Assembly (NCBI GenBank): GCA_045601385.1
Contig: JAZRZM010000004.1
Location: 69,351-133,350 of the forward strand
DNA: 64,000 nt
Direction: 5' to 3'
DNA from: Clostridia bacterium
Lineage (GTDB): Bacteria; Bacillota; Clostridia; Christensenellales; DTU072
The notes beneath the pieces are model-generated. The model saw only the letters and a program-made list of their open reading frames with translations, was not told the origin of the DNA and did not search any database. Shown piece by piece: positions 33,665 to 61,800 of this stretch; position 1 is the stretch's first letter, and each line of letters starts with the position of its first letter. Position numbers and translations under genes: made by a program.

Positions 33665-33867
33665 AGCCTCCGTTTGTTTGCCTTTGCCGTTTTTTGCCGA
33701 ATTTTTTTTCGGAAACAGTGGCGAAACGGCAAATTGTGTGGTATACTCATAGTCACACGTGATCGGAAATGCGGGTTCGCATTGCCCAATACCGTATAGT
33801 AATATATATTATACACAATATTCAGCATCTTTGCAAGATGTAGACAACAATTTTTCGGAGAAATTTT

Positions 33868-35289: not shown

Positions 35290-35292
35290 AAT

Positions 35293-36195: not shown

Positions 36196-36204
36196 GGGGG
36201 AAAT

Positions 36205-37523: not shown

Positions 37524-37635
37524 GACGGAAACGGGCAAAAAGTCGGGAGGATTTGTGCGGTGAACGCGGTATGCGAAAGGCGGGGAAATTTCTCGTCTTT
37601 TTTGTTTATTAAATTAAACTAAAAATTTTTTTCCG

Positions 37636-37664
37636 TTGACTTCCTATTCGCGCGGGTGTATAAT
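37636..37664 (+). promoter_or_regulatory. Near-consensus sigma-A promoter upstream of the giant ORF
   Basis: TTGACT (37636-37641), exactly 17 nt, TATAAT (37659-37664). It sits about 100 nt upstream of ATG 37764. Confidence 0.65.
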
Positions 37665-37763
37665 GTACGTGATAAAAGGGGTGAAGTATGCCCTTTTTAC
37701 GAAAAACATATCGGCTTAACCGCCCCAAAGTAGGCTGAAAAGGGGCGGAAACGGAGATGAAGT

Positions 37764-37835
37764 ATGAAAAACAAGTATTTGAAATTTGCCATTCTGGTGT
37801 TGTGCCTTGTGCTCGCTTTTTGCGTGGCGGCTTGT
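37764..37835 (+). other. Lipoprotein signal peptide of the giant protein
   Basis: MKNKYLKFAILVLCLVLAFCVAAC: basic n-region, hydrophobic core, lipobox V-A-A-C with Cys at residue 24, followed by the acidic SEREEEQE. Confidence 0.75.
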
Positions 37836-40800
37836 TCCGAGCGTGAAGAAGAGCAGGAAATCGATATCGGCGGCGAGGACGTCGAACAGGAAGTCCTTTA
37901 CGAATCGACGAACAAAGCGGGCGCCTTTGCCGCGGTCAAGTCGGCGATGGCATATATGGAAGCGAGTACGGCGTACGACAGTCCGGACTGGTTTTCCGTC
38001 AGTACCGTCCTTAACTTTACTTACCATGCCTACAACCAAGCGTCTTCGGGAAAATATCTTCCCGACTCCGTGAAGAAAAAAGCCGAATTCAGCCTTTCCG
38101 TTCTTGCCAATATCAACCTTGTCGATAACAGCCGCAGCGTCGTCTTCCTCGAACTGAACGAGGCGGAGACGAGGTTTACCGTCTTCGGGCTGTATTACTA
38201 TCAGTCGGCGGTTTATCTGAACGTGTTCGGCAAAAAATATTATGCCGACGAACTGAATATGACGACGGTCGGAAACGCCTTGATGACCGCGCTTGCCATC
38301 GGTACCGAGGACGAAACCAATATCGTGCGTATCGGCGGCAACTTCTTCCAAGCCATCCTTCCGTCGATTATGATCGGCGCTATCGATCTGAACAGCGTCG
38401 CCGGTATCGCGTGGGATATTCTTTTCGAGTCGTACGGCATACGGTACAGCGAAGAAAAAGTCGATTATGAAGAACTGGTTGACGGCGTTAAGCAAACGGT
38501 GTCGAAACCGCGGTATATGTACGTGGAAGAGTTCTTCAAGTTGAACTGGCTCATGGACATGGTCTGCATGGGGAAAATCGAACTGCGCAGCATCGTCTCC
38601 ATCGATATCGGTTGGGAAGCGTTCGGCTTGCCGAATTTCGATCCGATCATGAAAGACATACTCGGATTCAACCTCCACGACATTATGACGAAAGACTGGC
38701 CGACGATGTCCTGTCCTTTCTACGCGGTGGCGGAACTGCAACCGGTAACGGAAGAAGGGGAAGGTTCTTCGGGCTACGCGTACGTGTTTAACGGCCTCGG
38801 TATCGGAGTCACCGCCGCCGACGGAGAATTCGACGTCAGACTGGAAATCACGCCTTTCCGTTTCGGGCCCGTTGCCGACGCGCAAATCAAGGAAAAAGGC
38901 GCGGAAATCGACCTTTCGGAGTATTCGGTCGGTACCGCCGGAAAGAATAAAGTTTACAGCAAAGGCAGTTTTGCCAATATCGAAGCGAATTTCCGCATGG
39001 GCGTGGAATCGCCCGAGGGCGATCGCATCACCGTGAGCGACATGCTCGGCGGTCTGCTCGATTTGGGCGGAATCGGCGAAATACCGATCGTTTTGCAGGA
39101 AGGCGCGTCGTACATATTCGACGTCAAACTCGCCGCCGCGCTTGACCTTTTTAACAACGCGGGCAACTTTTTGCAACTGACGTACCGATATAACCGAAAA
39201 GAGGTCTTGTCGGTATATCTCGCGCCCGAATTCGATCAGGTGACGATCGGGGATAAGACGTTCACGCCGACGTCCATTTATTTCGATACGTCGCATCTGA
39301 CAAGCGGCGGGGCGGAGTTTTTCCCGAATACCAAGCAGACGAATATTGACTTTACGGAGCGCGTTACGGGGCTCCTCGGTTCCGACTTGATGGCTTATCT
39401 CGATCCGTACGTCAGTTCTTCGGCGTCAAGGAACGCGGCGCAAAACGCCGACGGTGACGAAGAAGAGGGCGGACTCGACGTAATGGCGATCATCGCCATG
39501 CTGATCGAGCGGAACGAAAGCGGCGACGGGTATAAATATCTGGAATTGCCCAAACGGGACGGGGAACATTTTCTGAAAGTGCAATTCGACAATTCGGGGC
39601 TCAACCGCGTGTTGTCGATGATAATGCCGACGGTTCGTTTCGTTGACGACGGCGAAGAAGGCTTTTACGAAAACGGTATCGGTTTGAAAGGCGTTACGCT
39701 TTCGATCGACTTTACCCGTCCGTTCGATTCGATCGCGCTTACGGTCGATTTTACCGAAAACACCTCTATGTATGTGGGAATCGGCTCGCACAACGAAGAC
39801 GGTTCGTACAATACGGGACTTTCTTATTTTTCGCGTCCGGCGTTTGAAATGGAAGCGCTCGGGCTCAATTCTTCCTTGACGGTCGATAACAAGGATCAGG
39901 AAACCGCGGCGCGGGCTTTGCGCGGCGCGTACAGAGACCTGGATAAAAACCTGAGCTATACCGCGACGATGACCGGTTCGGTCAAAGTCGGTTCGCACGA
40001 CAATACGAGCATCAACCTCGACTCTTTGGTCGCGCTCGTGTCCGAGTCGCTGATCGCTTCTTTCGGAATCGCGACGGGCAGCGAAATGAATATCGGATAC
40101 GAATTGCAATTGGGCGTCGTTTTGACCGATATGAGCCAGACCGCGCTTATTCTTGACCTGTACTTTATGGACAAAGACAACGTCAGAGTCCACGCGCAGG
40201 CGCCGTTTGTGGAATTGTATTACCGTGGCGCGGCGGATACGCTGTACGTCAATACGCAAGTCGACCCCGATAACGATATGGTGTCGCAACTGCACGAATT
40301 TCTGAACGTAACCAACGTGCTGACCGGTTCGATTCCGAAGTTTGCCATCGACAACCTCGGTTTGAGCACGGCGCTCGGCGCGATCCGCCTGGATATAAGC
40401 GATTTGTATTCGGCGATCGGCGTCGTGACCGAAAAAGCGTCGAACGCGGCGTTTTATATCGGAAAAGACGCTTTGACGACGACCGAGAACAGCGATTATG
40501 TCGAAGTTATGCCAAGTAACGCCGGTCTGGACGTCATGTCTCTTATCGGGCAGGCAATCACGTCGGTTTCCGTCACGGACGGTCTGCTCGGCGTTATCGT
40601 CAACGAACAGGTCCTGAACGCCGTCATCACCATGCTGGATATCGGCATCAACGGCGGACTGCCCGGCATCAAAGCGAGCGTCGGACTGCAAATCGGTACC
40701 GAATATGCCAAGACGGAAACGGGCGAAACCTACTATAAGCAAACGAACGGTAATATCTATTATGTCAAGTTCGATCCCGAGCAGGAAAAAGAAATCGTCT

Positions 40801-43800
40801 ATGACGCCGACGGAAACGCGACCGAACTGCCGGTGACGAGTCTCGAACTCAACCCGGTGCTGAAAGACAAAGAGTTTGCCGAGGTTCATTTCGGCTTAAT
40901 CGACAGCAACGAGGGACTGGTCGAATCTTTCTATTTCAACTGGATTCTGATCGACACGATCAATATCACGAGGACCAATTCGGTTTCGCCGAAGGGCAGT
41001 TTCAGTACGACCGATTACGGCTCTTTCCAAGAATGGATCGACGCGCTGAACGTTTCTTTGAACGTGGAGACGGAATTTATTGTCAAAGCCAATGCCGAAC
41101 AGTTTGCCTGGGCGCAGGTGTATCAATTATTGACCGAAACGGGGCTTGCTTCCGGCATGAACTCCACGATTACGTCGGTGTTGCAAACGGCGGTTATCCG
41201 TTTGACAAGTACGCTGTTTGATTCGACGGACAGCGAAACGGCTCTCGGCGGTTTGCAAATCGGTCTTGCCGTCCGCGGCACCGCGTGCTTGCAGGACCTT
41301 TTCAAGAGCGAACTTGCGGTGGTTATCTTTGATAAACGCGTTCGTTCCGCCGGCGGATATACGGCGAACGACGGCATTTCTTATCAGGTGCTTTTGGGCG
41401 TTTACTTAAAAGACGGCGAAGGCATCCTCGATCTTACCTATTTTGACATCGACCTTTTGAAAATAAACGACGTCAAGAGCACGTATCAGGGCATTATTGC
41501 CGGTATGTGGGACTCGTACGTCAACGCCGGAAAATCGGACAGCGTTTCGCCCGAAAATCACTTTACGAGCGGTAACAACTTTGTCCGCGGCGTTATGCAA
41601 CAGGAGATCCTTTCCTACTTTTTCAGCGAACAGTACGACAAGTACAATCAGGGATATTTTGCCAAGACGTATTCGACGACGCGTTACAAATATATGACGT
41701 TGACCGACGGGTACATTTATTTGTACGAAACGTCTCGTTTGTCCGCATACTTTACCTATACCGCGGACGATAACGAACTCAGACTGCTCCCCAACTATTC
41801 GTACTATCTTATTTCTTCGGACGGGACGATCTCGGTTTACGAAGCCGGTCGTGCGGGCGCACGCGCTGAGATTACGCCTCTTATGCGTGACGGCGCATAC
41901 TATCGTATCGACGTATACGATATCGAAAACAAAATGCTTACCAACAACTACGGGCAGTCTTCGTATAACGAGGCGCTGTTTGACGCCATGCTGAAATCGG
42001 AAGCGTATTCCTTGTTCGATACGCGGCAGGAAAAATTCTCGCAAAACTGGAAAGCGACCTACAATAAGGCGTCCGAAGCGGTAAAAATTTATATGGACGA
42101 ACAAAAGCAGGCGACGATAGACGAACTGAAAAACTTCTTGACGCTTTCGTTCAAAGCGAGTGCCGATTATACGACGAGACTTGCCGACGTGGCGAGTGAG
42201 GCGGCGTACAAAACGCGTGAAACGTATCCGGCTTACGAATACACCACGTTGAGAGTGCTGCAAGCGACGGCGGAATATAAGCGCATTTATGCCGAAATGT
42301 CGGCGGAAATGGTCGAAGACGAGGTGAACGACTTATACAACAACTATAATCAAAGCCAGTTGTTCTCCTTCCTCGGTAGTTCCGGCGGTTCTCTCAGCGA
42401 CGACTATCTTAATGCCGTGACGTGGTACAGAATTTATCGCAACGCCGATATTTCTCCTATCGCCGTATACAACGCGGCGGTGTTCGACGTATACGAATAC
42501 TATGCGAAAAACGCGCCGATCGATATTCACGTCGCGTCCAACGCCGAAGTGTCCGACGCGGGCAAAATCGCTTTGCAAATGAATTATAACAAGGGCAGAA
42601 TCACCCTCGGCCTTGCCGAAGAAGTCATCAACGCGTTCTTCCTGACGCTGCATATCAACTTCGGCGGATACCGTGTTTTCCGTTCGTTTGACGCCGAGAT
42701 CGATTTGACCGACGGCGTGGGCGCGAGCGTTGCGATCAACATATTCGACGTGTATAACGTGTCCGTCGGTATCCTGTCCCTGCGCGCAAGTCTGGACGAA
42801 AACGACTCGACGTCTTACTATAAAGTGACGCTCCCGACCGACGAAAGCGGCGCGGCGGTGGAAGGTGTGCCGAGCGCGGTCAGAGTGAAGGCGGAAGCCT
42901 ATATCAATATGCTGAATAAACTGGCGACGAACAATACCGGAGAAGAGTCGATATACGACTTGTCCGATCTGTTGACCTTGCTTCTGACGAACTCCGAATT
43001 CGTCCTTGCCGATCTGAAAGACTACTATAAGAAAACGGAAAGTTCTTTTGCCGATACGAAGTCGGACGAAGCCGTCATCGCCATCAAGGCGACCGCGTTC
43101 AGGTCTTTGCAGGAAGAAACCGATACCCGTACGTCGGAAGCGAAGACAGCCGAACTTGAAAAATACGTGGCGCAGGCGTGGGAAGATATCGTTACCGGTT
43201 CTGCCGACGGTAAGTATAAAGGCGCGGCGGAATTCAGTAATCAGCACTATGCTCTTGCATGGGATAAACTGGAAGGTTCTTCCGTGCGTATCCATATGGA
43301 CGAATTGCAACTGGACGTTCTGCTCGAATTCTTGGAAGAAATGGACGACAGTCTGCATATTTATGCCGATTTGTGGTTTAATATGAACAATTTGTACGCA
43401 AGCAGCCTGAAAGTGACGGTGACCAAAGAAGTCCTCGGCGAATTCGAAGAGGCGGTTGCCGTTGACGAATTGCGTTACGATCCGACCGACATCAAACAGT
43501 ATTATATCGGACAGTCGATCCCCGAAGGGCGGTTCTATACCTTGTCCGACGGGAAATATACCCTGCACAAGAGCATAAACGAAAACACAAGAGAAACGTA
43601 CAAGTTTGCGGCGGGCGAAACGTATTATATCCGCAAAGAAGCGACCGTTCTTGCCGTATTATACGATGGCAGCGAAGTGACTTCGACGTCGGAGTTTGCC
43701 GGCAAAGTGTACCTGACGTCGGGTATCTTCGGACTCGGTAACGTCATGATGCAAGACGTCACCGGCGCGGTCGAATCGATATACAGCGCCCTCGATATTA

Positions 43801-46800
43801 ACTTCATGAGCAATATTTCCGATACCGTGCGCGACTTCTTCGGCATGGCGGAAAAGGCGCAGAGCGCGGCGCCATCGAACGCTTCTTCGCAAAACGCGGC
43901 TACCGACTTGCATACCTATCTGGATATTCTTTTCAATGAGAAACAGTTTGCCGTTCAGTTATTGAAGACATCGCTTATTACCCTCGTTTACGTGCTTGCC
44001 GACGGCGATATCGCCGACGCGATAGCCGATCTCGATTTCGGACTTTCGGTCGGTATCGATTACGGCGAAAACGACTTCGGTTTGGGTGTGGAAGTCGATT
44101 TTGCCAATAATGAAATCCGCGCGCAGAACTTCCGCGAGGACGAAAGCGGCAAAGTGCAGGATACCACCGCCATTTCTTTGGGCGTACGCGGTATCAACGT
44201 CGGTTTTGCAAGCGACAGAAACGAACTTGCCGGCGTTACGACCGATTTAGCCGTACCCGAAACGGCGGACGGCGGAGAATATATCACGATGGAAGAGTTC
44301 TCCAAAATCGGGCTCGCGCTTGGCGGCTATCTCAAAATCAAGATGACGGAAACCGAAACGGACGTCGACAAACCCGAGGGGCAAGCCGATTTTAACTTCG
44401 ACTATGCCGTCAATATCTTCTCCCGGTACTGGTTGGAAAGAAGCCTCGATCTCGGTTTCCAAGCGGATATACCCGATTATACCGACATCGAAGAAGAGAT
44501 TTATTTGGATATCAAAGGCAACATCAACTTGCAGACGCTGTCGTCGCTGAAAGACATCGGGCTGTATATTTCCATGACTTCCCGCTCGCAAAGAGAGATT
44601 TACGATCTTGCGTACATGCGTGCGCGCAGAGAAGAAATGATGAAGGTTCTTGCCGACTGCGACAATAATTATCAGGAAGCCTGGATGACCTATTCTACCA
44701 TGTTGCGCAGCGGCGCGCAGGGCGGCAATACGGTGGATCCTATCTATAAGAGACTGCAATACGATTATCAAACGTATCTTATTATGAATGATATAACCAA
44801 GTATCTCCGTACCGCTTATGCCGGACTGACCGACGAGGAGTATTACGAGAAATACTGGAACGAACTGTACGGACAGTGCGGCGACTATTACCTCGGAGAT
44901 ATCCTCGGGATGTACGTCGAACTCGACAAAGAAGGTCGCGGTTATATCTATATCGACCTCGGATTTCTGAACGTCGAACCGATCGTGATCGACGACGTCA
45001 GCGAAGTCGTCAAGCAGGTCGCAAAAACGTTCGGTATTGATTGGCGTACCGTATTCTTCCCGGGCGAACTGAAAGCGCAAAACGTCGCTTTCGGAGAAAA
45101 TAACGAAGTATCCGTTCCTTCGGTCGGCGCGCTCTGCAACGCCGCGACCGACAGCGATCCGTTCGGCGTCGTCGCCAACCAGATTCTGATCGCGCTCAAC
45201 ACCAAACAGTATCAGCAGTTCTTGCTTGTATCGGCGACCAGCGCGGCTATTTATTCGGTATTCAGCGTGCTCGGCAACAGCGGTACGCAAAAATACTTCG
45301 GCGACGTTCAGCCCAGTGAAGACGACGACTATTATCTGCCTCATTATTCGCCCAACCTTTCGGTCAACCTCGAAGACTGGGACGAACAGTCCGAGACGTA
45401 TAAACTCGTCAACGTCGAACTCGCGCTCGACAACTTCCTGACGTTCTCCCTCGGTATCGATAATCCGACGTTGGACGTCGCACGCGGAGCGCAATTTATT
45501 ACCGTCCGCGAAAAGATCATCGGCGAGGACAACATCTATTCCGATTATTATACTTCGATCGACGATCTGTGGGTGCAAAAACCCGAAGTCAAACTGAATA
45601 TGGAAGGACAACTTCTGATCGCCGCGCAGGGCGAAAACGAAGACAGCGAAGTGTCCGGCACAATTAACCTCGGCAAACTGATCCGCTCTATCGTCGGGGA
45701 CGACTTCCCCATCGATGTGATGATCGAGACGCTCGAAACGATCGACGCCGATTTGTTCTTTACTTTGGAAGTTAAACTCAATATTCTGAAAATGCTCAAT
45801 ACGCTGACGAGTCTTGACGCAATCGGCGGCGTGGGCGACGTGTTCGGACTTCTGAACGGAATGGGTTTGGAAGCCTATATCGAAATCACCTCGCGCGAAC
45901 ACGACGACTCGGGACTGATCGTCGCAAACAACGTGTTGATGGGTATCTATCTTATCGAAGAGGGGCCGACGACGAATCGCTATCTGTCTTTGTATATCGA
46001 TTTCTCGGTGTTCCATATCAGCCCGATAAAGATAACCAATCTCGCCTCTGTGGGAGCCGATTTATTTGAAAATATCGAAAAAATCATGAGCGGCGGAGAC
46101 GCGGAGAACGCGGCGGGCGACCTTGGAAAACAAGAGCGTGTAATGGATATGCTCAGGCTCTATACCGGTGTGACGGCGTCCGAACAGGCGGCTTTGTTCA
46201 ACGCGGCGAGCGACGAAGAAAAGGCGCAGGCATGGGACGGCAAAGCGGTGGAGAACTATCTCCTGCTTACCATCGGCAACGGCTACGGTATCACGATGAC
46301 CGCCGTCGCGGCAGTGCTTGTCGAAGTACTGGATCAACTGTTCAACGACGATAAAAATATCGCTACCCGTGCTTTCGAGGGTATGGCGGAAGACAGAATA
46401 ACCGCTTCTTATAAAGAACAGATCGACCTTTTGGAAGGGATCGCCGCCACGATGGAAAGTCTTGTCGAAGGCTCGGTCGAAGACGCATGGGATAACCTGA
46501 CCGCCGATACGGCGCAGTATCTGACCGTCGAGGAAAAAGAAAAAGCGCAGAAAGTTTATCGCATGATTACCGATTCCAACTATTACGGGCTTACCGAATC
46601 GGAAATGAAAGAAATGGCATGGTACGCGTACTATTGGGATATCGTCGGCGTGTCGTATCTGCAAATCATACAGATCTTTGGCGAGACCAATGCCCAACGG
46701 TTCGTTAACATGACCGGGTTTGCAAGCAAAGTTTCCGTTTCCGAAGACTATGCCGGAAGACTCGAAGCGGTCAAATACGGTGCGGAAAGTTCGACGCTTT

Positions 46801-49800
46801 TGGACGAGTCCACGTTTGCCATCGCCGCAGAGTATGCCGACTATTATATTTCGGCGGCGGCGTTCGACAAGTTGTATTGGCACGTTGACGGGCTCGTTTC
46901 CGTCCTTATCGAATCCAAACAGACTGCGACGCAGGCGGGCGGGACCAAGAAGACGGAAGAAATCAACAATGACGCGTTCATGTTGTTCCGTAACAATCCG
47001 AACCTGTCCGTCGAAGACAAAGAGGCATATACTGCCGTTTACGAAAACTATCGCAGAACGGCGGCGACCGACATTATTGCCGGCAGCAAGGCGTGGGAGC
47101 AGGCTTATAACGAAATAACGGCGATGCAGGACGCGCTTCTTGCCGCCATGAAGTATACGAACAACTACGCCGTTTCGTCTCTCGGGTTGGAGATTCAGCC
47201 CTTCTTGCTTGTGGCGGACAAATATGACGTTTCCAACGAGTATACGGCGGTATCCGTTATCGTCGGACAGAACGTCCCGAACGGTTTGTATTATAAGAGC
47301 GGCGAAGAGTACGTCGAGGCGACGGGGCTGTTTGTCAGAGACTTGCAGTATTATGTAAAGACGTTCTCGCCCGCGTGGAAGGCGATGGCGTGGGACTATC
47401 TCGAAAAGAAAGGACTCATTGCCGAAGATACGCTGACGCAATACCGCTTGAACGAAAGAAATCGCGCTTTGCGGAACGCGCGTGGCACCGTCGTGGAAAG
47501 CAATATCTACCCGTACGTGTGGGAAAAATACGTTTCGGAAGTATCGACGGCGACGTTGAACGGCACGCAGGACGGCTATCTTGTCCGCAAGCAGACGAAA
47601 TACAGCGTGACTTTGTCGGGCGGCGAATACTCGGAGACGCATAGCGATACCCTCGTTGACGGTATGAGCGTATGGTATCTCGAAACGGTCGATTCCGTCT
47701 TGCCCGATGTTCTGACGGGTGCAAACGAAGACAGTTATTATACCAAAGCGTATTCCGCCATGCCGGAATTGATCATCGACACGGCGAACGGCGTCGGCAC
47801 GGTCGAACTCGGCTTGTTCAACGAAGGAAACCTCCTTTCCCTCTTGCTTGCCGTCGCAAACTTTAACATAAAAATCAAGTTCGTACAGGCGAATATCGCA
47901 TTTTCGAACGACAAAACGGGACTTATCCGGAAAGAATACGAAATCGTCAGCGACGACGTCGGTTTGAGCGCGGAACAGGAAATCGTGGAAGAATCGGTTT
48001 CCGATTATATCGCCGAAAAAGACGAGGAAGGCTTCTTTATTTCCATTGACAGCGACTTCGGGTACGTCTATACCAAGTTGGAACTGAACTTCTCGTTCAA
48101 CGCCGACGAAACGTCGTACGACATGGGGAACCTGATCCAGACGGTTATGTCCGGATTCGGCGGAAACTTCTCGATCAACGGCTATGATATTTCGGCAAAC
48201 GTCCTGATCGACATCCTGTCCGAAATCAGCAAGAACTATTGTCTGACGATCGAAGCGAGAGTCAACGTCTTCAACCTGATGAAAGACATCGAAAAAGGTT
48301 TGTCGACGATCGACTTTGCCATCACCCTTAACCCGATTCTCAGCGACGGTATCACGGTGAACTACGACGACGACATTATTCAGATCGTTCTCGGTTCTTT
48401 GAGCGAGAGCGAAAGTTTCGTCTTCGTCGATCTGTCGCGTTTCAACATTCAAAAACTGTATATCCGGAACGCCATTAACTACGTCCGTAATCTGCTTATG
48501 GCAAACAATCTCGGACCGGCTTTCTTCGATCCGTACGGTGAAGAAAGCATGGCGGCTATTATCGAAGACGTTTTCCTCTATTCCTACTTTGCAAGCGCGG
48601 CGAACGCCGAAGAAGGCGACGAAGAATACGTCGATTTGTCCGTTTTGTTACAGGAAAGAGGATTAAGTACGGCGATCGGCAGTATGGCGATTTTCGCATT
48701 CCTCGACATGCTTAACATGAGCGCGCTGGAAGATTTCCTCGGGGCGTCGGGCGACCTCGGTATCGATCTTGCTATTTTCAGCCTTGCCGAAGATATCAAC
48801 ATAACCGCCGACTGGGACGACTCCGACCGCGACCTTATCCGTCTCGGTGTGTCTTACGACTCTTTGGACGCCAACAACGTGACCAGCGGCAACGGTATTT
48901 CGCTCGACTTCTCCATCCATAACATGCAACTCGACCTCGATCAGACGAAGAGAATCCTCGGAGTCACCGTAGGCGACGCGACCGAAGAAAGCGAAGAAAT
49001 CGCCGAAGCGAGACAGTCGCTCGAAGAGGCTTTGGGACTTACCCGCAACAGTGAAGGCGACCTCGTGGCGATTCATAAAGAGGACGGAAAAGTCTACTAT
49101 ACCTACTACGACGAATACAAGGGGCAGACGATACGCACGACCGACGTGGACGAAGCGGATGTCGCCCGTATTGCGGAAATCGACGACGATTTGCCCAATA
49201 TCGTGGTACATACTACGATTTATATCACCGCCAACCTGAAAAAACTCGCCGGGACCGACTTGAACAAGTCGCCGATAAGCGATCTTCTCGACACGTTCGG
49301 ATCGGGACTTCCCGTCGGCAGCGGTTTGTCCGATTTGCTCGGCAGTCTGATGCTTTATATCGCCGACGACCACATGGTGACTTTCGCCTTGGATATCGAC
49401 GCCGAGATCGAACTCGGCAACGGTCAGGACAGCAACTACCTCGCGCATATTATCAATGGTTCCGTTATCCGTATCCGTATCCGCGCATGGCATACTTCCG
49501 ACGGGCAGGAATCGGATAGAGTGTGGGCGACCGTGACGTATCAGGAAGGCAGTTTGTACGTCAACGCCACTCCGATTAACACCGACGACGGCGAAACGCC
49601 GCTGAAACTCGTCATGTATAACGTAGCCGATATGGTCTTCCCCTCCGACGCGGCGTCGGTCAATGCCTGGACGGCGATTGCCGAAGACTGGAAAGCCGCC
49701 GTATCGGGTACAAGTATCGGCATGAACCTCAATCTCGAATGGAAGTCCACCGGTTTTTACGCGCTCGCTCTCCGCAGTGCGGTCGTATCCTTATTAAATA

Positions 49801-52800
49801 TCTTCAACCTCGGCGGTTTCGACATTTTGCCCGAAATCGGAGCCGAAGTCTTTATCGAAGCCAACGAGATCGAAGACAGATTCGGCGTGGAAAACGACAA
49901 GGTCATCAGTTTTGCCATCGGCGTTACCGCGGCAATCGGAGAGACCTTCTACAATAACAACGATTCTTCCCTGCTTGAAAGCGGCGGACTTGCTCTGACG
50001 GTCGGTATCCGCGACTTCTTCGTCGGGTTTGAAAACTTCGAAGAATGGGGCGTCACCGACGGAACGAGTTACGTTTCGATCGACGAATTGGAACTTGTCC
50101 AGGTCAGTACCGTCCTTACCATGGGACTTACCGACGAAGAAGGTCGCTACACGCTTGCCGAACTTTTGGCAAACGTCGTCGATCTCGCGTCGTTCGGCGT
50201 GACGAAAGAAGTCTATCCCATGCTCGACTTTATGGAAGACGACAGCGCGACTTTGCTTGTCAAAGTGACCGCTCGCGTCAATCCGTCGGCATTTTTGGAT
50301 GAAAACGGCAATCTGCTCGACGACTTGCAGGCACAAATAGCGATTTCGGTTCAGACGGACGAAGGTTTGCGCGAAAATATCATCGTTTTGTCTTTCGTGC
50401 GCGGAGACGTTTATATCGATTTGAGCAAACTTAATTCTTCCCTCGGCAGAGTGAAGATAGCGTCGGTGCTTGACATCGTTTCGTCTTTGACCGGTTCTTC
50501 GGCGCAGGGCGCCGGCTTCCCGCAGGACGTAAGAGATACGCTTTTGTCCATTCAGGAAGCATTCGCCGGAGCAGAGAACGCGACGCAGGCGCTGTCGAAA
50601 GCCGAAGTCCTTAACGCCGTCATCAATCTCCGTTTCAGCGGAGCGCAAGGCTTGGGGCTGGAAGTCTTCTACGGCTCGCTGTATTGGTTCTTAAAGGCCT
50701 TTATCGACGAGAATATCGCCGACACGATGGAACTTGTCGCATACGTCAGTAATCCGTCGTTGTCTCTCGGTATCGATTATAACGTGGACGTGAAACTGAA
50801 TCTGAACGTACCGTCGACGATTTATAACGACGACGAACTGATTTTGTTGCAGCAATATATGTCGCAGGCAAAAGACTACTACGGCTATAACGGGCTCGAC
50901 GTGCTTTTGTACAACGATATTTATAAAGGGTACGAAGAAAAAACGCTGAACGCGCTTCGTGAAAAACTGACGATATCCGGATTGACTTATACTTATCCCG
51001 ACGCGTCGGTTACCTCGATCGGGTACGCGACGGAAATACTCAAAAAAGACTTCCGTCTCGACCTTATGCAAGAGGTATCGGAGTACGTGTTGATCAACTA
51101 CCCGGCGACCGACGTCATTCAGACGTATAAAGCCGCTCTCGAAAACGCTTACGACGACTTGCAAAACGTGTGGATAAGCGGCGCGAGCGGTACGGACGGA
51201 ACGGGATATTCCACATTGAAAGCCGTCCTTTTAGGTATGGCGCATGCGACGGCGACCGAAAAGCGCGCCGTATTGTACGCTCTTGTCGACTATATGCGTG
51301 CGGCGGCTTACGATATCAAAGCGTCTTCCGCCTATCTGACCGTCGCCGAGGACGTGATCGACGCATACGACGAAATGCTGTCGCGCTATATGTCGGGCGA
51401 AATGTCGGAAAACACCTATTATCAAGGCGTTTTGATCCCGCAAGTAGCCGCTTACGGCACAAAAACGACAATTACGGTATACGATGCCGTGGAAAACATC
51501 GTCCGTTCGACCGGCTTATACAAAGCGGTGGAAACGACGCCGTCGGCTGAAAAAGTCAGAGACGTCAACGGATGGCTGGATTCCGCGTTGATCGTTAACG
51601 GGCTGACGCTCCGTCAGTGGCTGACCAATTTGCAGAGCCGCTATTCCTATCTTGACGAAGACGGATGCAAAGTCGCGCTCTTCGACATGTTCGCGATCGA
51701 ACTTTACAGCAAACCGACCAAAGCGGAATACGGCGAATATGTCGACGAACTGTATTCGATGACGGACGGCAAAGACCAATATGCGATTACGGACGCGATC
51801 GTCGCTTATTACGACGACGGAAAAGGATTCCTTGCCGATTACCTCGATGAAAAATTCGATTATACGGCAAACGAACGGATCGCTTTGCAAAAACTTGCCG
51901 CGGCTTACGAACGCGGAAAAGTAATCGTTCAGGACGCTTGGCTTGTGGAAATCGGCAAAGAGACGTCTACGACGACTACCTCCGAACCGCCGATCGAAGT
52001 GCACAGCGCGAAGTACGACGAAATGATGCGGAGCCTGAAAGTAAAGGCGTGGGACGCGTACCGCGAAAGCATGGCGGAAAAGAGCGCGGACGAACGCTAT
52101 ACCGAAGGGGAAAGAAACGAAGCGAAGCGGAATTATGCGTTGAGCGAATTCGCTTACGACAACGCGCGGATTAAAGTCGGCGAAGACGACGCCGAATTGC
52201 TGAAAGAAGCGGCGTTCGATAATTTGCAGTTGTATCAATCCGATTATGCCGCCAAACTGATGGAAAGTCTTGTCGACGGCAGTACGGACGGGCTTTTGTA
52301 TACTTCCTGGTTTGAGGCGGTCGTCTATTCTTATATGGACGCGGCGACGCTTACCGCGCTTGCGGACGCAACCTTTGCGGCAAACGATCCGTATGCGATC
52401 CGTACGATTTTGCAATCGATTCCGAAATCGATTCGCGAGTACAACAAGACGGTCGGCGTTATGCTTACCGAAGTGCAGGAAGTTGCGCTTACTTATTATC
52501 TTTTGACCGATACGTCGGAAGCGTACCTGTTTATCGCGAAGAACTACTCCACGCCGATAGAAACGGGCAAACAGACCGCCGTTTCTATGTTGCAAGGCGT
52601 GATCGATCGCGTCGGAAAAGGATTTATCGATTCTCTCGGAAAAGCCATTTTGTCGGGTATCGTCGACGAAGTGAACGACGCGACGGGAACGGCTTACAGC
52701 GTGCAAAGTCTGACCGCCACCGAGGCGAACGAGGTCGTTTACGCAAAATATGTCGGATTGATCGAAAAACTGTTCGCATTGACGCGCGCGATCGACAAAG

Positions 52801-55800
52801 GCTATGACGAATGGAACATATCCGCCGAGTCGTGGGACGCGCTCGTAAAAGGCGTGGACTTCGATTCGTATGACAACTTCGACGACTTTATCGCTGCCGC
52901 CGAAGCCGCTATCGACGCCGCCGCCGACGAGAACCTCGGATACGGCGTCAGAAAATCGTCCAAAGATACGAAATACTTCCGTACCGTAATGCAAGACATA
53001 TACGATATTTATAAAGAACAGTATGCGACGATTTTGAGCGAAGGCGACGAAGAACTGAACATGCTCCTTGCCCAACTTTTCGACGGAGCCATGACAATCA
53101 ATGCGTTTGCGCAGAAATACGACAGTTCCGACGCTAATAAGCAGTTACAGACGGCAACCAATATTGCGTACCGTATCGCCGGCAGCGCGCTGGGCAGTAC
53201 GGCTTATCCGTTTACCGTCAATATGTACGTCTATCCCGCCGCGCTCGCTTTCGCGCAGACAAAACGGAATGGCGCGCAGGGTACGGCGGACGCCGTCGTA
53301 AAAGCCACGCAATATCTGAATAAAGCCGGTACGTCGGACGACTCGCCCGTGCTGGATTACTTTAATAACGATATTCTTGTATATGCGGTCGCTTATGGCG
53401 CGCTCCTTGCCGACGATCACGTTGCGGACGCGGTAAAACGGCAGGCGATCGAGTATTACAACCTGTACACGGAAGAAAAGTATACCGTCGATTCGTACAA
53501 ATTGACGGCGGACGCTTTTGACGATCTCGCTTCGAGCGACTACTTTGTCTCCGGTATGTCCACGGCGAACAAGGCGCTTGCAAAGGTCGTGGAATACCGC
53601 TATGACATTCTGGACGGCGGACTTGCTTTCAAGAATGAAGTTTATCGCAAGGCTTTTGAATTGCTGCTCCGTTACAGCGCGTCGGCAGACCGTTATGAAG
53701 AATTGCAGAACGTGCGCAATTCGGTTATTTTCGAATATCTGTACGTCAACGACGAAAAGACTCGCGTCGAGATGAAAGACACCATTACCGATGCCGCGCA
53801 AACGGTTATCGCCGGCATAATGAAAGCGATTTCGGGCGAAAAGAGTTATTATTCCGCCGACAATATCGATATTTTTATGATGTTATACGACGAGTTTGCA
53901 ACCGCAATCGGCGCGTTGTACGACAATCTGAAATATGACCTCGACGGGGCGAACGCGGTCGCTTCTTTGTTTGAAACGGTCAAAGAAAGCCTCGCGCAGA
54001 GCGTTTTTGAAATGAAGTTTACCGCCGAAGACTACGCTTTGGCGATAGACGAGGTTCTTGCCGAACGCGAACAGGGCGGCGTTATGCACGAGACGACGGG
54101 CGTATATAAAGATATAATCAATACCTTTATCGACGCGATAGAATGTATCGCCGACTATGCGGAAACGCTGGAATATTACGCCGAAAGCATGCTGGATTCT
54201 TATGCCGGCACGACCGCCGCAGACGCTCTCGTAAAAGCGGGATACGACGACTTGCTGAATTATATCCGCGGCGTGGAAGCGGCGTACAAGGGTGCGGTTG
54301 AACAGTTCGTTCTGGATAACTACCGCAGCGCGACGCACTATTCCAACAAGACGGTTAAACAACTGATCGACAACATTGCGATTCCGGACGCGAAGAGTCT
54401 TCTGAACACGCAGTGGTATAACAGCGAAGTGTACAGTATCGACAGCGGACTTCTGAAAACGGAGAGTTCGCAGACGCTGTATTATCGCAGCGGTTCGTCC
54501 GTGGGAGAGCCGAATCCGCCTACGCCCGAGGGGAGCGAGGAAATAAGCGGTACGGCAAAAGTAACGTACGTCGAGACTTATACCGTCACGATGAAAGTCA
54601 ATGTCAACGCCATCAATTATGCTTCCGTTTACGGCAGTTCTTCTTTGGCAAGTATCATCGGCGCGCAGGGCGTCAACCTGACCGGCGTCAAGACGTATAA
54701 GAAGACGACGGATACCGAACGCGTAAAAGACAAAAAGTATTACGAAAAGACGGCGAAGGAAGTCACGGCGAAACTTGTCGATCAACCGATTATGTCGGCG
54801 ATGTACGTCGTCAACCCGGGCGACGCGACGGAGTATACGCAGACAAGCGACTTGTTCTATCAGGACAGACAAGGCTATTACTATACTTTCAAAACGTCGA
54901 ATTCGACCGATATGAACAGCCTGTACGAAGTCGAGTCGCATTGGATCGAAAGCGAATATGCGAAGACGCTGACCTATCAGGACGGCAGTACGACGATGTA
55001 TTCGTATGCCTTCAAAGCGTCGGCGCAGAATGCGTCGAGCGCGTCTCAGGAGACAAGCGACAATAAGGACGAGGCTTACGCCGCAGAAGAAGCCAAGTGG
55101 AACGACTGGGTTAAGAGTATCCGCAGCGGCGTCGTGGCGGATCTGAAAGGACAATACGAAAACGACATCAATAACATCATCACTTATATCGACGGCATGA
55201 AGACCAAGTTGAACGACTACCTGAGCGGAATCACTTCGGCGGGACTCCTTGCTTCGTTCGCCGATAAGATCATTACTTCGTTGAACGGTTGGAGTTATGA
55301 AAAACCCGAGCAAAAGACGCTCGAAGTAGACGCAAGAATACCTGCCGGCGTGTACTTTGAACAAAAAACGGTCGGAGCGGACGTCTTCAAGACGTATGAA
55401 CCGACGCGCGACGCCGTCGTTTCTTCGGGAAAAATCTATTATGTAAAATCGCCCGTTTCGTACAGTTTCGGAGACGAAAACGTCAAGATGCAACCTCTCT
55501 CCGATTGGATCGATTACGAGGCGATCGGCGGCTTGTCTTTCTATAAGCAATACGAACAGATCGAACAGATGACGTATATCGCGGCGACTTCTTTGACGTC
55601 GGACAGCGGTTATAACGTCGGCGGCGATTCCGTCGTTACGGCAAAAGCCGTTTCCGGGTATCTGGCGACGTTGCTGGAAGGAAAGGCGTCGGCAATTACG
55701 CCCAAAGAGGCGCGCAGTATGCTTTACCTTGCCTATACCGATTATAAAGAAGGTACGGGCGTAAGTTGGATGAATAACAAGTTCGACATAACCGTCGGAA

Positions 55801-58800
55801 ATCAGATTATCAGAAAGAACATGAAAGAACTGTTTGACGCATTCAAACAGGAACTGTCCAATCTGACTATCGACAAGTACAGCGACAAGGGATATTCGGC
55901 GACCGATTCGGCGGCGGAAGAACTCGTCAAGTACGGATACGAAGAAGCCGCGGGTTACTCGTCGCGTTCTTTGTACGGCTTATTCCGCGATTGGTTTGAA
56001 ACAAACGGTTATGAAGAGGCTTTCCACGAAATCATCTATAACGCCGTCTATAACGTCATTTCCGCCGAAGAAGCGGCGATTCTCAACAGAGCGTTCGCAG
56101 AGACGTTCGGTTCGAGAGAATTCCGCCTCGGCGATTATACGACGTGGATGAACACGTATCGCGAAGAGGAAGGGCAACAACTGCTTGCGTACTTTGAAGA
56201 CGTCGTGGGACAACTGAACACGGTTTACAGCGGCTACGATTCGGTTGCCACGCTGACGACCGTGATGGGCGCGCAATATACCGCGTTTACGAATGCGCTT
56301 GCGTCCTTACTTGTCAACAAATACAATTCCGTTTGGGCAAGCGAAAACGCCCTCGATCCGTCGACCTCGTTTGCGGGTGTGCTCGAAGCGATCGGCGCGC
56401 TGAACGCAGGCGTCTACAAAGCCGATTCGGGGCTCGTACGGTTTGCGCAACAAATCGGCGAATTGCCGCACGAAACGGCGGCGGAATTGCGCTCGGTCTG
56501 GGCAACAGTCATTAACGATATCGAGAACGCGGTGTTCTTTGTTCCGATGACAACCGCCATGCAACAGGCGTACGACGCCGTGATCGACGCGTACTACACC
56601 TTGCTCTTTACGGCAAAACCGGACGGAGACGGCGTCGCCGACTACTACGAGGAATTTGTCGCGGGCTATCTTGCCGGGTTGGATACGGCGAAAATCGAGG
56701 GCGACAAACTCTTTGCGCAATACGCTTCCGCAAGATACGCCGAGATTAGCGCTTACATGACGGGCTCCGTGGCGCTAATGGAAGACGCCGCCGCGTTTAT
56801 GGGCTCCAAGGCTGCTTTTGACGCGCTTTCGGCAACCCAAAAGATGAGAATCCTCATCGATTTGCAAACAAGAAACGCATACGGACTGAACGGCGTGACC
56901 AACGCCGTCAAAGGGGAATTCAACGTTTATTCCACGATGACTTCGATATACGAGTATCTTATTTACCGTTCCGAAGATTATGTGTCCGCGCTTGTCTGCG
57001 AATACGATCGTTTCCTTTCGGTGAGCGGCAATGTCGCTCTCCGTACCGCCGCCGGTCTTACCGATCCGGCTTTGAGTGCGTCCGACCGTGAAAAAGCGAC
57101 CTTTATCCTCGGTATCGCGCAGTATATCGACGGACATATCGAAGACGCCGTCGTGACCGAACAGTTGCACGCATGGTACGGAGACGCCGCGCAAGCACAG
57201 GACGCGAGAACGAGCCTGTTCTATCTGCTACATTGTGTTTCCGAACCCGAAACGTATATGAACCTTGCCCTTTGGACGAGATACTTCGGTAGTGACAGAG
57301 AGTATTATACCGAAGAAAGCGTCACCGTGACGGCAAACGATCCGATTCCCGAAGAAGAGGGCGTTTGGTATGTCAAAAACGGCGATACGGGACTCGAAAC
57401 GGCGACGGGTTCGTTCAGCGGCTCGGCTTATAAGAAGTTTACGCGCGTTACGTCGTATACCGTTCTGCCCTCGACCTACTATGTCCTTTGTGATGGGTTT
57501 ATGGCGGTCGCGGCGGGTACGCCGGTTCAATCGGGAGCGTCTTATGCGACCTTTGCGCCCGTTTCGTTCGGTTTCTGCGAAGAAATTGACGGCGACGTGT
57601 ACGAACTCGCAGGCGGCGTTTATACCTTATCTATGGATAACTATGCCGACGGTAAGACCGTTTATTACCGTCTGACGCCTTCGGTACAGGGCGGATCGAA
57701 CGTCGCGGGAAGCAACGTTTACGTGAAAAAATCCTTCTTTGTCGAAGCGGACGAAGTATACTTCGCGTCTTACCGCGACGCATACTCGAAAGCGGAAAGC
57801 AAGTTTGCCGTTGTGTACAAAGTGGATAAAATCGATACGAACAGCACGGCGGAAGAGGTCGCGCGTCTTCTCAGAGATTTGACCTTTACCGACGACGGCG
57901 AAATTCTTGACGAATACGTCGGACTGCTCCGCGAGAACGCGTCCGAAGCGATGGGAACGTATCTGACCGATAAAAACGTAATTTCGCAGGCGATGTTTGC
58001 CGACTTCCTTGCCAAAGAAGAGAACGCAAAGACGGTCGCCGACCTGGGACTTTCTATCGGTATCCGCGGTCAGGATACGACGATCGGCGCGTACGACGCA
58101 AAATCGACGCCGACCGACGTAGTCACCAATCCGGACGACTTTGTCAACTTCGACGAAATGCAACTGTATCTGTCTTTCGGCGGATTTATGGAATTCGGTA
58201 TGGACGCCGGAAGAAGTAACGTCGTACCCCTTATCAACATGCTTTTCAGCGGACTGAATATGTCCGAAATCTATTTGGAATTCTTGTCCACCTCCGTGCT
58301 CGGCGGCAGTTTGCAAGCGGAATTTGCGCTCGATATGCAAAAAGCCCTCAGCGACGATTCGAACGAGGTAAAAGAATCGTTGACGGCAAGTCTGCTCATG
58401 AATTACGTATTGCTCCGTTACGATTCCACGGGCGAAGCGGGCAGATTCGAGCAGGCGATTATTTCCATCTATATCAGCGGCGGTTATGTATACGCCGGCG
58501 TCGAAATCTTCGATACCAATCTGAAAATCGCGCTCGAACTGGACGTCGTATCCCTCGTCCGCTCTTTGCTCGGACTTGCGCCGAGTGAAAGCGACAACGC
58601 CGCTGCGATCGAAAAGATCGTCGAAGTATTCGGTTCGGGAAGTAAACTGAACCCCTTTGCGCAACTTGCCGACGCCGCTTTGACGGGGAACCGGGCGGAA
58701 GGTTTGCAGGCGATACTCAGAATGAGCAGTTCGGAAGCGAGCCTCATTTTGTCGGTGGATATTCTGCTCGAAGCGATGCGCGTTATCGTCAAACTGATCC

Positions 58801-61800
58801 GCGGTACCGACGATCCTTCCGAATCGACCACCGTCGCGTTTGTCAATTCCGATAACTTCGTCGACTTTGTCAACATGGTCTTTACGCAAGGCGATCTGAC
58901 GATCGAATACGGCAACGACTTCGGCTTGCTTCTTAATATCGATAACAATAAGAAACTGGGCGGAACGGGCGACAACCTCGCTTATTCGTTTACGTTCGGC
59001 TTATTGAACGATACCAAGTTCTCGATGGGATCGGCAAACGATCAAAGAGAGGACTTCTTCGACGTCTTTACTCGGAATATCGGCGAAAAAGAAGGACAAG
59101 GCTTCTTCGACGACTATTACCGCTCTTCGTTCAGCGTCCGCGACCTTATCAACGGCAACGTGCCCGAGAACTACGGCGTTTCGGAAATGCTGACCGACGT
59201 CCTCGGTACCCGTCTGCAAGTCAACCTTTCTCTTACGATGTCGAGCGAAGTATTGAAGACGGTCATCGATTGGAGCCGTCTGTTCGACGCGATGAAGACG
59301 GAAGGCGTGGAAGCGTACTTCTTTATGAAGATGATGGATAACGCGTCGGGCGACATTCGTCTGGAAATCAGCGCCGATATCGATATCAGCGATATTTATT
59401 TCGACGTCAGATTGAGCGGTTATAACAGCGACAACGTCAATATCTTTAACATTTACGAAATGAGCGGTTACTTGAACACCGACGAAGCGCAACAGATGAA
59501 CCCGGTCTTCTACTTCGATATGGGCGAAGTCGGCGACGAAAAGTACTACGTCGACGGGACGCAATTCTATGAATTCCTCGACGTCAACGTCATTTACGTA
59601 TTTTTGAGCCTGTTCGGCAGTACGACCGCCACCAACTACGATAACTATATCAAGCGGTTGATGAACGTAGACAGTTCCAATGCGAGCGGCATCATGGGCA
59701 GCGACTCGGCGACCGACATATCGGAAATCGACTTCGGCAAGGTGTTCGACAGTCTTGCGATCGGCGAAAAAACGCTCGGTATCCGTCTCAGTTCCGCCGC
59801 GGTCAATACGATCATCGAATTGCTTGACAGCGACTGGACGTTCTGCGATATCGGTAATATCGCGGTAGACATCGACTTTGTCGATAACTCGATCGCCCTT
59901 ACTTTCCCGCTCGACGTCGCCGTACAGGACGAAGACGGCAATACGCTCAGCGACAGTAAGGTGTCCTACGGTATGAAGATCGGCGGACTCGATATACACA
60001 TCGGCGAAGCGGTGGACTTCCTCGGTGACGGACAGAGTATTCAAAAGAAGTTCCGCGGTTACGAAGAGATCACGGATTATGTCTGGATATCCGAAGTCAA
60101 CAGCCGTTTTGTCATTAACGACGACTTCAATACCCTCATCGATCTTTCCAACGTGACCAGCGGTCTTGTCGAAGGGTTTGAAATGCAACTGCAAAGCAAC
60201 GAAGATCAACTCGACCTCGAACTTGACTTCGTACTGCGTACCGAAGTGAACTTCTCCGACTTGTCGGCGCTTTCGCTCGAACTGCTTATCAAGAGCAAAG
60301 CGGGCAACGTAATTCTCGGTATAACGTTCGAGGGCGCGTACAACGACGGTACGATTTATCTCGATCTGAGCGGTCTCGGCTATCCGCAGGTGTACCTGTC
60401 GAATATCGATCTCGGACACTATCTGAAAAACATGCTCGGCGGTATTCTGAACGGGCTGACGACGGGATCGGACGACGAAGCGTCAAGCGGCGCGTTCAAC
60501 GCAAGCGGCTCTACCGACAATCCGATCGGCGCGGACGCGCAAAAGGCGTATCAATACAATTCGATCAAGGACGCCGACTTTACCGCCAACGTTTTGTTCC
60601 TGCTTTATACGCAAGATATTTTCAACGTGGCGATAACCGGTTCGCTTATCTATACGCTACTCGATTACGTCATCGAAGTCCCCACGTTCGCCCCCGAATT
60701 CGCAAGTCTCGAAATCGGTTATGAAAAGGACGAAATCTCCGGTATTCGTATCGTTATCGACGATCATAAACAGTTTAATCTGAATTACAGTTTCCGTAAG
60801 AGTTTCTCGTATATGGCGCCGATTTCGAAAATCAAGACGAACAGCAACACCGAATACGACGACGCGCGCACGCACAGTATCAGTTACTCTTCGGACAAGA
60901 AGACGTACTTTGCCGGATTTACCGCAATCGACAATATCAAGAACGTCTTCCTCGGACTCAATCTCGAAGTCATCATCAACACGATGGACGACGAAGGACA
61001 TAAGAGCGACGTTATCGTCGGATTTGAAAACATGCTTGAAGAAATGCTCGGCATGGCGGAAGGTTCGGTCGATTTGCAATGCCAGGATACCTATATGAAA
61101 CTGGACGTTTCGTTGCAGGTAGCCATCGATTTGAGAGACTTTACGAAGTCGGTCATTCTGATCGACATCATGTATCAGGACGAGACGTTCCTCGGCGTAT
61201 ATTACGTTGACGGCGGCACCTATATCGATCTCGGCGCGCTCGGGCTGTTCCGCGCGAACGCAAACGGCGTCAACCTCGGCGCGTTCCTGAACGGCATGGT
61301 GGGCGACGCACTCGGCGGCATGGGCATTACGCTCGACGGCGAAAAAGGTCTGGACGTACGCGGACTTGTTCAGGATATTCTGAGTCTTACCGCCGAAAGC
61401 CCGACCGAAACGCAGACGAAAACGGAGGAGCCCGACAAGACGAACGTTCTGCTCCTTGCCGAACGCGACCGTCTGATCGCGCAGTATACCGCCAACGCGC
61501 AGAACGGCATGTATGACGACCTCGACGCAAACGAAGAAAACCTGTTCAAAGAAGAGGTTCGCGTCGCGTTGGAAGCGTTGAGCGCCGCTTATCCGGGTGA
61601 AATGACAAACGAGATGTACGCAAGCACGCAAAAAGCCGTATATGCGGCGGCGGGCGTGCGGAACGAAGCGCAACTTGTCGAAGAGAAGACGCCCGCGGCG
61701 ATTCGCCTTAACCTCCTTCTTTATAACGACTCGGTCACGATTTCTCCCGAACTCGCCGGAATAGGCGACCTCCTCGGCATGAATCTGCCCGAACTGAATT

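Follow-up and report, generated by a model that had tools for sequence, protein, structure and literature searches.

Results

A gene for a giant predicted lipoprotein with a recurrent hairpin

The window analysed here is a stretch of 64,000 nucleotides (nt) from a Clostridia bacterium of the Christensenellales (GenBank assembly GCA_045601385.1, contig JAZRZM010000004.1, positions 69,351 to 133,350 of the forward strand). From nt 37761 up to the window end its plus strand holds a frame without a stop codon, which codes for a giant protein. A sequence-only reading of the window had noticed a degenerate strand-turn-strand motif recurring through this protein; this hairpin, the module that it closes and the family of giant lipoproteins that carry it are the subject of this report. 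The open reading frame (ORF) starts at the first ATG, 37764, with GGAG located 7 nt upstream. The N-terminus of the product, MKNKYLKFAILVLCLVLAFCVAAC, followed by SE after Cys24, reads as a lipoprotein signal peptide conforming to the lipobox pattern [LVI][ASTVI][GAS]C, and five full-length homologs, P0005-P0009, have equivalent lipoboxes (...ALIGC, ...ALVGC, ...LLLSC, ...GVVAC and ...IIAAC). No C-terminal LPXTG or transmembrane anchor was seen in the homologs. The protein is acidic (15% D+E versus 7.4% K+R), and Pro, Cys, His and Trp are scarce. Its features are listed below, in nucleotide positions of the window with amino acid (aa) positions in brackets; bit scores of modules refer to the homolog-only module profile described later.

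37764..63998, plus: giant ORF, at least 8,745 aa; the gene continues past the window end
37764..37835, plus: lipoprotein signal peptide read from sequence, lipobox VAAC, Cys24
38073..38231, plus: module 1, C-terminal part (aa 104-156, 9.1 bits)
38178..38222, plus: loose hairpin TVFGLYYYQSAVYLN of module 1 (aa 139-153)
38790..39299, plus: module 2 (aa 343-512, 9.5 bits)
39195..39287, plus: loose hairpin of module 2 with enlarged turn (aa 478-508)
39318..40262, plus: module 3 (aa 519-833, 13.3 bits)
40203..40256, plus: loose hairpin PFVELYYRGAADTLYVNT of module 3 (aa 814-831)
40287..41474, plus: module 4 (aa 842-1237, 24 bits)
41385..41474, plus: hairpin QVLLGVYLKDGEGILDLTYFDIDLLKINDV of module 4 (aa 1208-1237)
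42492..43520, plus: module 5, in two pieces (aa 1577-1754, 22.3 bits; aa 1834-1919, 6.8 bits), with no recognisable hairpin
43731..44999, plus: module 6, enlarged by a Tyr-rich insertion (aa 1990-2412, 65 bits)
44901..44999, plus: strong hairpin of module 6, IYIDLG at 44946-44963
45066..46043, plus: module 7 (aa 2435-2760, 76 bits)
45936..46034, plus: strong hairpin of module 7, LYIDFS at 45990-46007
46044..46457, plus: partial module, marginal (aa 2761-2898, 4.7 bits)
47757..48473, plus: module (aa 3332-3570, 40 bits)
48381..48464, plus: strong hairpin of the preceding module, FVFVDLS at 48417-48437
48495..49586, plus: module in two pieces (aa 3578-3760, 15 bits; aa 3784-3941, 28.7 bits)
49530..49580, plus: loose hairpin TVTYQEGSLYVNATPIN of the preceding module (aa 3923-3939)
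49614..50468, plus: module (aa 3951-4235, 56 bits)
50379..50459, plus: strong hairpin of the preceding module, VYIDLS at 50409-50426
50691..58013, plus: module-free insertion of ~2,400 aa (aa ~4310-6750)
58026..58538, plus: module (aa 6755-6925, 11.5 bits; hhalign probability 96%)
58452..58496, plus: loose hairpin QAIISIYISGGYVYA of the preceding module (aa 6897-6911)
58500..59567, plus: diverged module, marginal (aa 6913-7268, 2.9 bits, hhalign 36%), collinear with P0007 aa 2862-3427
59472..60407, plus: module (aa 7237-7548, 64 bits)
60309..60398, plus: strong hairpin of the preceding module, IYLDLS at 60354-60371
60396..61271, plus: module (aa 7545-7836, 83 bits)
61152..61250, plus: strong hairpin of the preceding module, TYIDLG at 61218-61235
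61521..62051, plus: terminal half-module 'cap' (aa 7920-8096), collinear with P0007 aa 4089-4270 (29.5 bits); 2.4 bits against the module profile, not significant
62796..62960, plus: CarboxypepD_reg / Big_1-like beta-sandwich, sub-threshold (aa 8345-8399, 27.2 bits; cut-off 32.3)

The beta-sandwich at aa 8345-8399 marks the start of the distal region and is the sole signal of a known family in the window protein.

The hairpin in the window protein and in its homologs

The six peptides that had been quoted as the clearest copies of the motif, and the coordinates given for their hexa- or heptapeptide cores, are all exact and lie within one open frame. The motif occurs above composition-shuffled controls: in 1,000 residue shuffles the core pattern h-[YFV]-h-D-h-[SG] appears 0.52 ± 0.70 times (maximum 4), compared with 6 observed, and a combined two-strand pattern 0.007 times, compared with 3 observed. 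Judged from the window protein by itself, this signal is weak. When the copies were left out of the profile one at a time, the omitted one ranked among the top two or three non-training matches, at leave-one-out scores of -1 to 5.8 bits, while the best scores of 50 shuffles were 5-8 bits. Self-BLAST of the whole protein returned the identity match only, and self-BLAST of fragments gave few weak pairs, the best being aa 7467-7613 against aa 7763-7898 (E = 1.6e-4). A two-sequence profile and a wide (120-aa) profile of seven copies, searched in the giant protein alone, found no new copies; a self-only analysis of this kind lacks power.

A much clearer signal came from beyond the window. With aa 7401-8599 as the query, HMMER was run exhaustively over 1.84 billion cluster representatives and found only 19 proteins at E ≤ 1e-3, including the giants P0005-P0010 of 6,720-7,826 aa, five of them full-length; the closest homolog is 37-46% identical to the window protein. 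Searched with the profile of the six copies, the independent homologs yielded 46 copies, while a shuffled version of the homolog set scored -0.9 bits at best; iteration of the profile converged on 74 copies. The family consensus of the hairpin is DENLLGVYY..NGDLYIDLSGLGLPKIKIDGV, with a tight D/N-G turn and with the Tyr and the Asp each at least 90% conserved. Searched in the giant protein at a relaxed threshold, the family profile gives 12 matches, against about one per shuffle. The sub-threshold ones among them recover five of the six 'looser versions' of the motif that had been pointed out by eye, at aa 139, 814, 1208, 3923 and 6897 (38.18, 40.20, 41.39, 49.53 and 58.45 kb); the sixth, near 39.2 kb, corresponds to aa 478-508 (VLSVYL...SIYFDTSHL), which has an enlarged turn and lies at the end of a module match.

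These data also bear on the explanation that the copies are a chance or compositional artefact, a hydrophobic, beta-prone protein of 8,745 residues rich in Tyr and Asp yielding look-alikes without common ancestry. The overlap of the leave-one-out scores with the best shuffles, the failure of the self-only wide profiles to recruit copies and a best self-BLAST E-value of merely 1.6e-4 are what this explanation would predict. There is next to no chance that it is correct, given the core count of 6 against 0.5, the 46 independent homolog copies at a regular period of ~270 aa, the scores of up to 83 bits that a homolog-only module profile attains in the giant protein exactly at the hairpins, and a consistent structural context in AlphaFold2 models; the homolog copies, their period and the module-profile matches rule it out together with the positional-ortholog matches described below.

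A module of about 270 residues

In homologs of 7,100-7,800 aa, each of which has 8-12 strong copies, successive hairpins are 240-330 aa apart, and this regular recurrence defines a module of ~270 aa. We built a module profile from 38 inter-motif segments, taken from the homologs only. In the giant protein it gives 16 matches of 4.7-83 bits, all exceeding the 3.8 bits that the best of 100 shuffles reached, and in P0007 it gives 16 matches above 5 bits. With split matches merged and marginal ones counted, the giant protein holds 13-16 modules, 12 of which carry the hairpin at their C-terminal end (six strong and six looser copies), in agreement with the earlier estimate of at least 12 large modules. 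From the N- to the C-terminal side, a module consists of an A/P/N/E/S-rich linker, the segment 'h-s-L-s-l-s..AAL.ALL..LGLD', several amphipathic strands, a 'hdL..LL..LLg' helix, the segment 'l.ldIeAniNI.Dl' and, as the last element, the hairpin.

We obtained two AlphaFold2 models, from alignments that mix orthologs and paralogs of the module. The model of a single module (aa 7545-7840) has a predicted local distance difference test score (pLDDT) of 64 and a predicted template modelling score (pTM) of 0.44, with residues 180-290 at pLDDT 81-92; the two-module model (aa 7237-7840) has pLDDT 62 and pTM 0.48, its second module being mostly at 70-85. In the two-module model the hairpin of the module at aa 7237-7548 is predicted as strands 280-289 and 292-298, followed by a third strand at 307-312 (pLDDT 85-89), and that of the module at aa 7545-7836 as strands 571-579 and 582-586, followed by 594-598 (pLDDT 79-85). 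Both modules thus show the strand-turn-strand that had been read from the translation, with a short loop and a third strand added. A long helix and then a disordered linker of ~40 residues are predicted after the third strand, and each module is modelled with ~12 strands and two internal helices. The amphipathic strands are long (up to 13 residues), and the linkers comprise 30-50 residues of low complexity, rich in A, P, N, E and S. As modelled, the motif is the best-conserved and most confidently predicted part of the domain.

Age of the array and irregular spacing

The window protein and P0007 are homologous in collinear order, and the aligned parts take in both the N-terminal region and the last modules (aa 2-879 with 3-806, 3335-3721 with 1968-2282, 3798-4306 with 2297-2770, 6790-7385 with 2862-3427, 7398-7858 with 3565-4044, and 7980-8155 with 4089-4270). 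We compared 63 well-defined modules of six proteins by BLAST, and every one of them found its best match in a module of another species' protein, at a median score of 139 bits, compared with 29 bits for the best paralog in the same protein. The seven modules of the giant protein that were tested find their cross-protein best matches in collinear order. Positional orthologs are 28-46% identical overall (28-32% for the last module), and paralogs 11-18%. Since positional orthologs exceed paralogs and the order is collinear, the array was already present in the common ancestor of these lineages.

A surface protein of this kind could also have grown by recent tandem repeat expansion, in the style of a contingency locus, as repetitive surface proteins often do. 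We give this explanation virtually no credence. The repeat search of the gene gave only chance-level matches of 30-40 nt, and the in-register 99-nt cores of the hairpins average 36% identity, which bears out the earlier remark that the copies are dissimilar as DNA. The absence of DNA repeats, the low identity of the paralogs compared with positional orthologs and the collinearity across species rule out recent expansion, and they uphold the view of the sequence-only reading that the modular architecture is ancient and highly diverged.

The irregular spacing of 1-8 kb that had been attributed to the motif holds for this protein; it does not hold as an ancestral trait, the homologs being regular at 240-330 aa. 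The irregularity here is due to insertions within and between modules and to a module-free block of ~2,400 aa. Compared with P0007, the giant protein has ~1,300 extra residues spread over aa 879-3335, one such stretch being the Tyr-rich insertion inside the module at aa 1990-2412. The module-free block (aa ~4310-6750) is absent from the homologs of 7-8 thousand residues and is conserved at 32-37% identity in the homolog of Christensenella sp. UBA1782. Aligned with the module profile (hhalign), it has a probability below 0.3% throughout, compared with 96% for the flanking aa 6750-6920, and it has no Pfam match. Windowed amino acid composition was uninformative on this insertion. The block is Tyr-rich, and its internal repeats are very weak.

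Distribution of the family and extent of the gene

A conserved C-terminal block, DPYDLTDFTAIGGTW, is present in all eight long homologs; the window ends before its position in the giant protein. When GTDB species representatives were scanned with this block from the homologs, 35 species-level genomes proved to carry the family. Almost all of these are Christensenella, Christensenellaceae, Ca. Stercoripulliclostridium or Clostridia metagenome-assembled genomes (MAGs), the samples being from gut, rumen or digester. The family is restricted to Christensenellales-type uncultured gut Clostridia. One member lies in a genome labelled Ruminococcus bicirculans (CAVIFU010000003.1), unlike the other carriers, which is probably a case of mis-binning or mislabelling, not true presence in Ruminococcus. 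Each genome has one copy of the gene, located among housekeeping genes. A related-locus search with a single segment of the giant protein found no close relative.

In the UBA1782 MAG (DCGI01000015.1), which has the closest homolog, the gene is split. A run of 3,337 open codons ends at about nt 10014, and the 5,722-aa P0001 starts at nt 10001 in another frame. P0001 thus represents the downstream portion of a giant gene that is frameshifted or mis-called, and the split is either an assembly frameshift, a genuine disruption or a programmed shift. From collinearity with this homolog, the full window protein probably has ~13,400 aa; the start of P0001 is equivalent to aa ~7730 of the window protein, so that ~4,900 residues probably lie beyond the window.

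Antisense ORFs accompany the giant gene. Many long 'shadow' ORFs lie opposite to it on the minus strand (37716-63929), with up to 861 stop-free codons; examples are 46062-48452 (796 aa), 44247-46016 (589 aa) and 53883-55550 (555 aa). In the UBA1782 MAG the upstream part was annotated not as the giant gene but as such minus-strand ORFs, which have no Pfam match. Such ORFs are an annotation hazard for the giant-lipoprotein family.

Comparison with known families and folds

Neither Pfam nor NCBIfam returned a family match to the module when the whole protein, 23 modules and the homologs P0002 and P0004 were scanned. PDB sequence searches gave no match either, whether the query was the whole protein or the module profile, and full-text literature searches found no paper describing this family. 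The exceptions in the family scans are sub-threshold matches to CarboxypepD_reg, Big_1 and Big_4, all distal to the array. Foldseek searches against PDB gave no significant match for the single module (best E = 0.23, TM ≤ 0.17) or the two-module model (best E = 0.016, TM ≤ 0.26), nor did a search against BFVD (best E = 0.014). The inability of the earlier reading to name a family is thus matched by all these searches, and by sequence comparison the ~270-residue domain is one that had not been described before.

Several known families were considered individually. CarboxypepD_reg (PF13620) is the label of the database homologs, which carry precomputed matches to it; the homologs' only names come from MFA5448907.1 and MCL2629995.1, of Clostridia/Bacillota MAGs, both annotated 'carboxypeptidase-like regulatory domain-containing protein'. 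In the giant protein this match (27.2 bits) is below the gathering threshold of 32.3, and the domain makes up <1% of the protein, outside the module array, and is uninformative on the hairpin and the module. Rhs/YD repeats form beta-hairpins of the type YxYDxxGRL, with a Tyr-x-Asp and a Gly turn, and have a superficial likeness to the hairpin described here. YD repeats are ~20 aa long, in tandem, and form a beta-cocoon, whereas here there is one hairpin per ~270-aa module; no PF05593/RHS_repeat Pfam match was found in the giant protein or the 23 modules. An Ig-like or cadherin-like repeat is likewise rejected, as the modules have no Big_x, Cadherin or Cna_B Pfam match and are ~270 aa long with helices; Foldseek gave no Ig-fold match reaching significance on the module models.

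The weak top Foldseek matches (porins, DUF1329/LolA-like proteins, RseB, double hot-dog proteins, MHC/CD1 and LmcA) combine helices with an open antiparallel sheet or a half-barrel. They fit the alpha+beta two-layer architecture of the models, with no relationship established. They also bear on the main rival to the role that we propose in the Discussion, namely that the array is a conduit for lipid or other hydrophobic cargo, in which amphipathic strands from one module to the next would line an unbroken groove or make up serial lipid-binding half-barrels, similar to AsmA/TamB/VPS13 or to LolA/Lpt. The giant protein shares with AsmA/TamB/YhdP and VPS13/ATG2 its great length, the N-terminal membrane anchor predicted for it and repeated amphipathic-strand units broken by helices or loops. 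Its long strands with few helices, the enrichment of the non-significant top matches in open-sheet or half-barrel lipid binders (DUF1329/LolA-like 4z48 and 3bk5, RseB, LptD, CD1, ApoB and LmcA) and the pTM of 0.48 for two modules, which hints at some inter-module packing, point in the same direction. We nevertheless consider a conduit quite unlikely, its positive support being limited to the amphipathic strands and non-significant fold matches. The module is about twice as long as a repeating beta-groove unit, disordered linkers of 30-50 aa separate the modules, and the helices predicted between strands are as in capped domains. There is no match to AsmA, AsmA_2, DUF748 or DUF490 in the whole giant protein (Pfam, E ≤ 1) or in the 23 modules, and no TamB, AsmA, VPS13 or ATG2 structure among the Foldseek PDB matches, the models being of moderate confidence. 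In addition, the distal half resembles Ig and CarboxypepD_reg domains, as in adhesins, and the Bacillota hosts have no known second membrane, and presumably no outer membrane to bridge to.

Other genes of the window and of homolog loci

Upstream of the giant gene are ordinary chromosomal genes that point to a Bacillota genome, namely the his operon and genes for SerRS, ArgH, DnaD/DnaB_2, DnaI, a SLOG protein and a HAD hydrolase; the SerRS is 73-88% identical to proteins of MAGs named Clostridia or Christensenellales. Three further observations concern this region:

6635..8179, minus: 514-aa protein of the his operon with a HisRS-like part (tRNA-synt_His, HisZ-type) and HisG (ATP phosphoribosyltransferase), which appears to be a HisZ-HisG fusion
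24857..29453, plus: BspA-type leucine-rich-repeat protein (354 aa), then two overlapping ORFs of ~580-600 aa, one without Pfam match and the other MFS_2-like; this may be a further surface or transport cluster
30317..33664, minus: 1,115-aa ORF without Pfam match, dominated by long charged coiled-coil-like helical stretches, with a central 'GNKCPICDAV' CxxC that recalls the Rad50/SbcC zinc hook and no obvious Walker A visible at the N-terminus

In the Clostridia MAG with P0006, the stretch directly downstream of the giant gene (31726-39430) codes for a 2,046-aa protein with Big_2, Big_3 and RCC1/WD40_RLD, a Big_3 protein and a GH20 glycosidase, which suggests a surface-protein neighbourhood in that genome; this stretch is not conserved in the window.

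Discussion

The hairpin is the C-terminal and most conserved structural element of a ~270-residue alpha+beta repeat domain. An array of about 14-16 of these modules, produced by ancient duplication, makes up the N-terminal and presumably membrane-proximal part of lipoproteins of 7-13 thousand residues. We propose that the lipidated N-terminal Cys would tether the protein to the outer face of the cytoplasmic membrane, and that the array would serve as an elongated, semi-flexible stalk holding the distal C-terminal region away from the cell. This distal region, with CarboxypepD_reg-like and Ig-like beta-sandwiches located mostly beyond the window, may have a binding role. Within each module the hairpin would be the core of folding or stability, and its near-invariant Tyr and Asp, on the same strand face, could be a buried hydrogen-bonded pair or, speculatively, a repeated Ca2+ or ligand site. 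That the array is a new repeat domain serving as the stalk of a giant surface fibril or adhesin, anchored by an N-terminal lipid, is the reading that we find reasonably probable.

The closest known proteins are other giant repetitive surface proteins and adhesins of bacteria (see also PMC9302970 and PMC12863079). The staphylococcal Ebh/Embp, Giant1-5 of Apilactobacillus kunkeei and RTX adhesins such as LapA, SiiE and MpIBP have the same extreme length, extracellular signals and acidic composition, as well as long arrays of modules duplicated anciently or recently and distal beta-sandwich domains. In contrast to those adhesins, the ~270-aa alpha+beta unit with disordered linkers matches no FIVAR-GA, Big, cadherin-like or RTX domain, the predicted anchor is N-terminal lipidation instead of LPXTG, type I secretion system retention or a transmembrane segment, and the family is confined to Christensenellales-type Clostridia. 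The kind of protein is already known, as giant modular surface proteins; the repeat domain, and a family almost entirely unannotated, are new.

Several points weigh against the stalk. No homology or experiment ties the module to adhesion or to any other function, and no gene neighbourhood is conserved between the window and the homolog loci compared, which leaves no operon-level support. Exposure through a thick Gram-positive wall, like the envelope type itself, is an assumption. The confidence of the AlphaFold2 models is only moderate overall (pLDDT 62-64, pTM 0.44-0.48), and the modules may be separate beads or may pack into a continuous sheet.

An envelope scaffold or S-layer-like lattice, in which the modules self-associate laterally into a surface layer or a wall-spanning matrix, would also be served by an acidic, very large, lipid-anchored and repetitive protein, with one copy per genome at housekeeping loci and a collinear array conserved over long evolutionary time. 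We regard it as unlikely: Pfam and NCBIfam scans found no SLH, CWB2 or other wall-binding domain, nothing indicates self-association, and a fibril can accommodate lineage-specific insertions as large as ~2,400 aa more readily than a lattice can. A bolder form of the conduit would make the modules a new class of open, helix-capped beta-sheet units that bind ligands or lipids and relay hydrophobic molecules along an anchored protein of ~13,000 aa. Such a relay would cross the monoderm envelope or link Christensenellales to partner cells, as the Gram-positive counterpart, unrelated in fold, to bridge-like lipid transfer proteins; both the relay and this use of it are very unlikely.

In the human gut microbiota the Christensenellales belong to the groups that are most heritable and most associated with health, and they are almost entirely uncultured. 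At 23-40 kb, the giant-lipoprotein genes are among the largest that these bacteria have and take up ~1-2% of a small genome, and >95% of the length of the proteins is without a recognisable domain or detectable structural relative. The module and its diagnostic hairpin allow the annotation of genes that are now labelled by a minor beta-sandwich or shredded into spurious antisense ORFs, and the module definition permits a new Pfam-type family and gives tractable single-module constructs for work on structure and binding. If the array is indeed an adhesion stalk, the module would be a new building block among bacterial surface fibrils; if it binds lipids or other ligands, the implication would be much larger.

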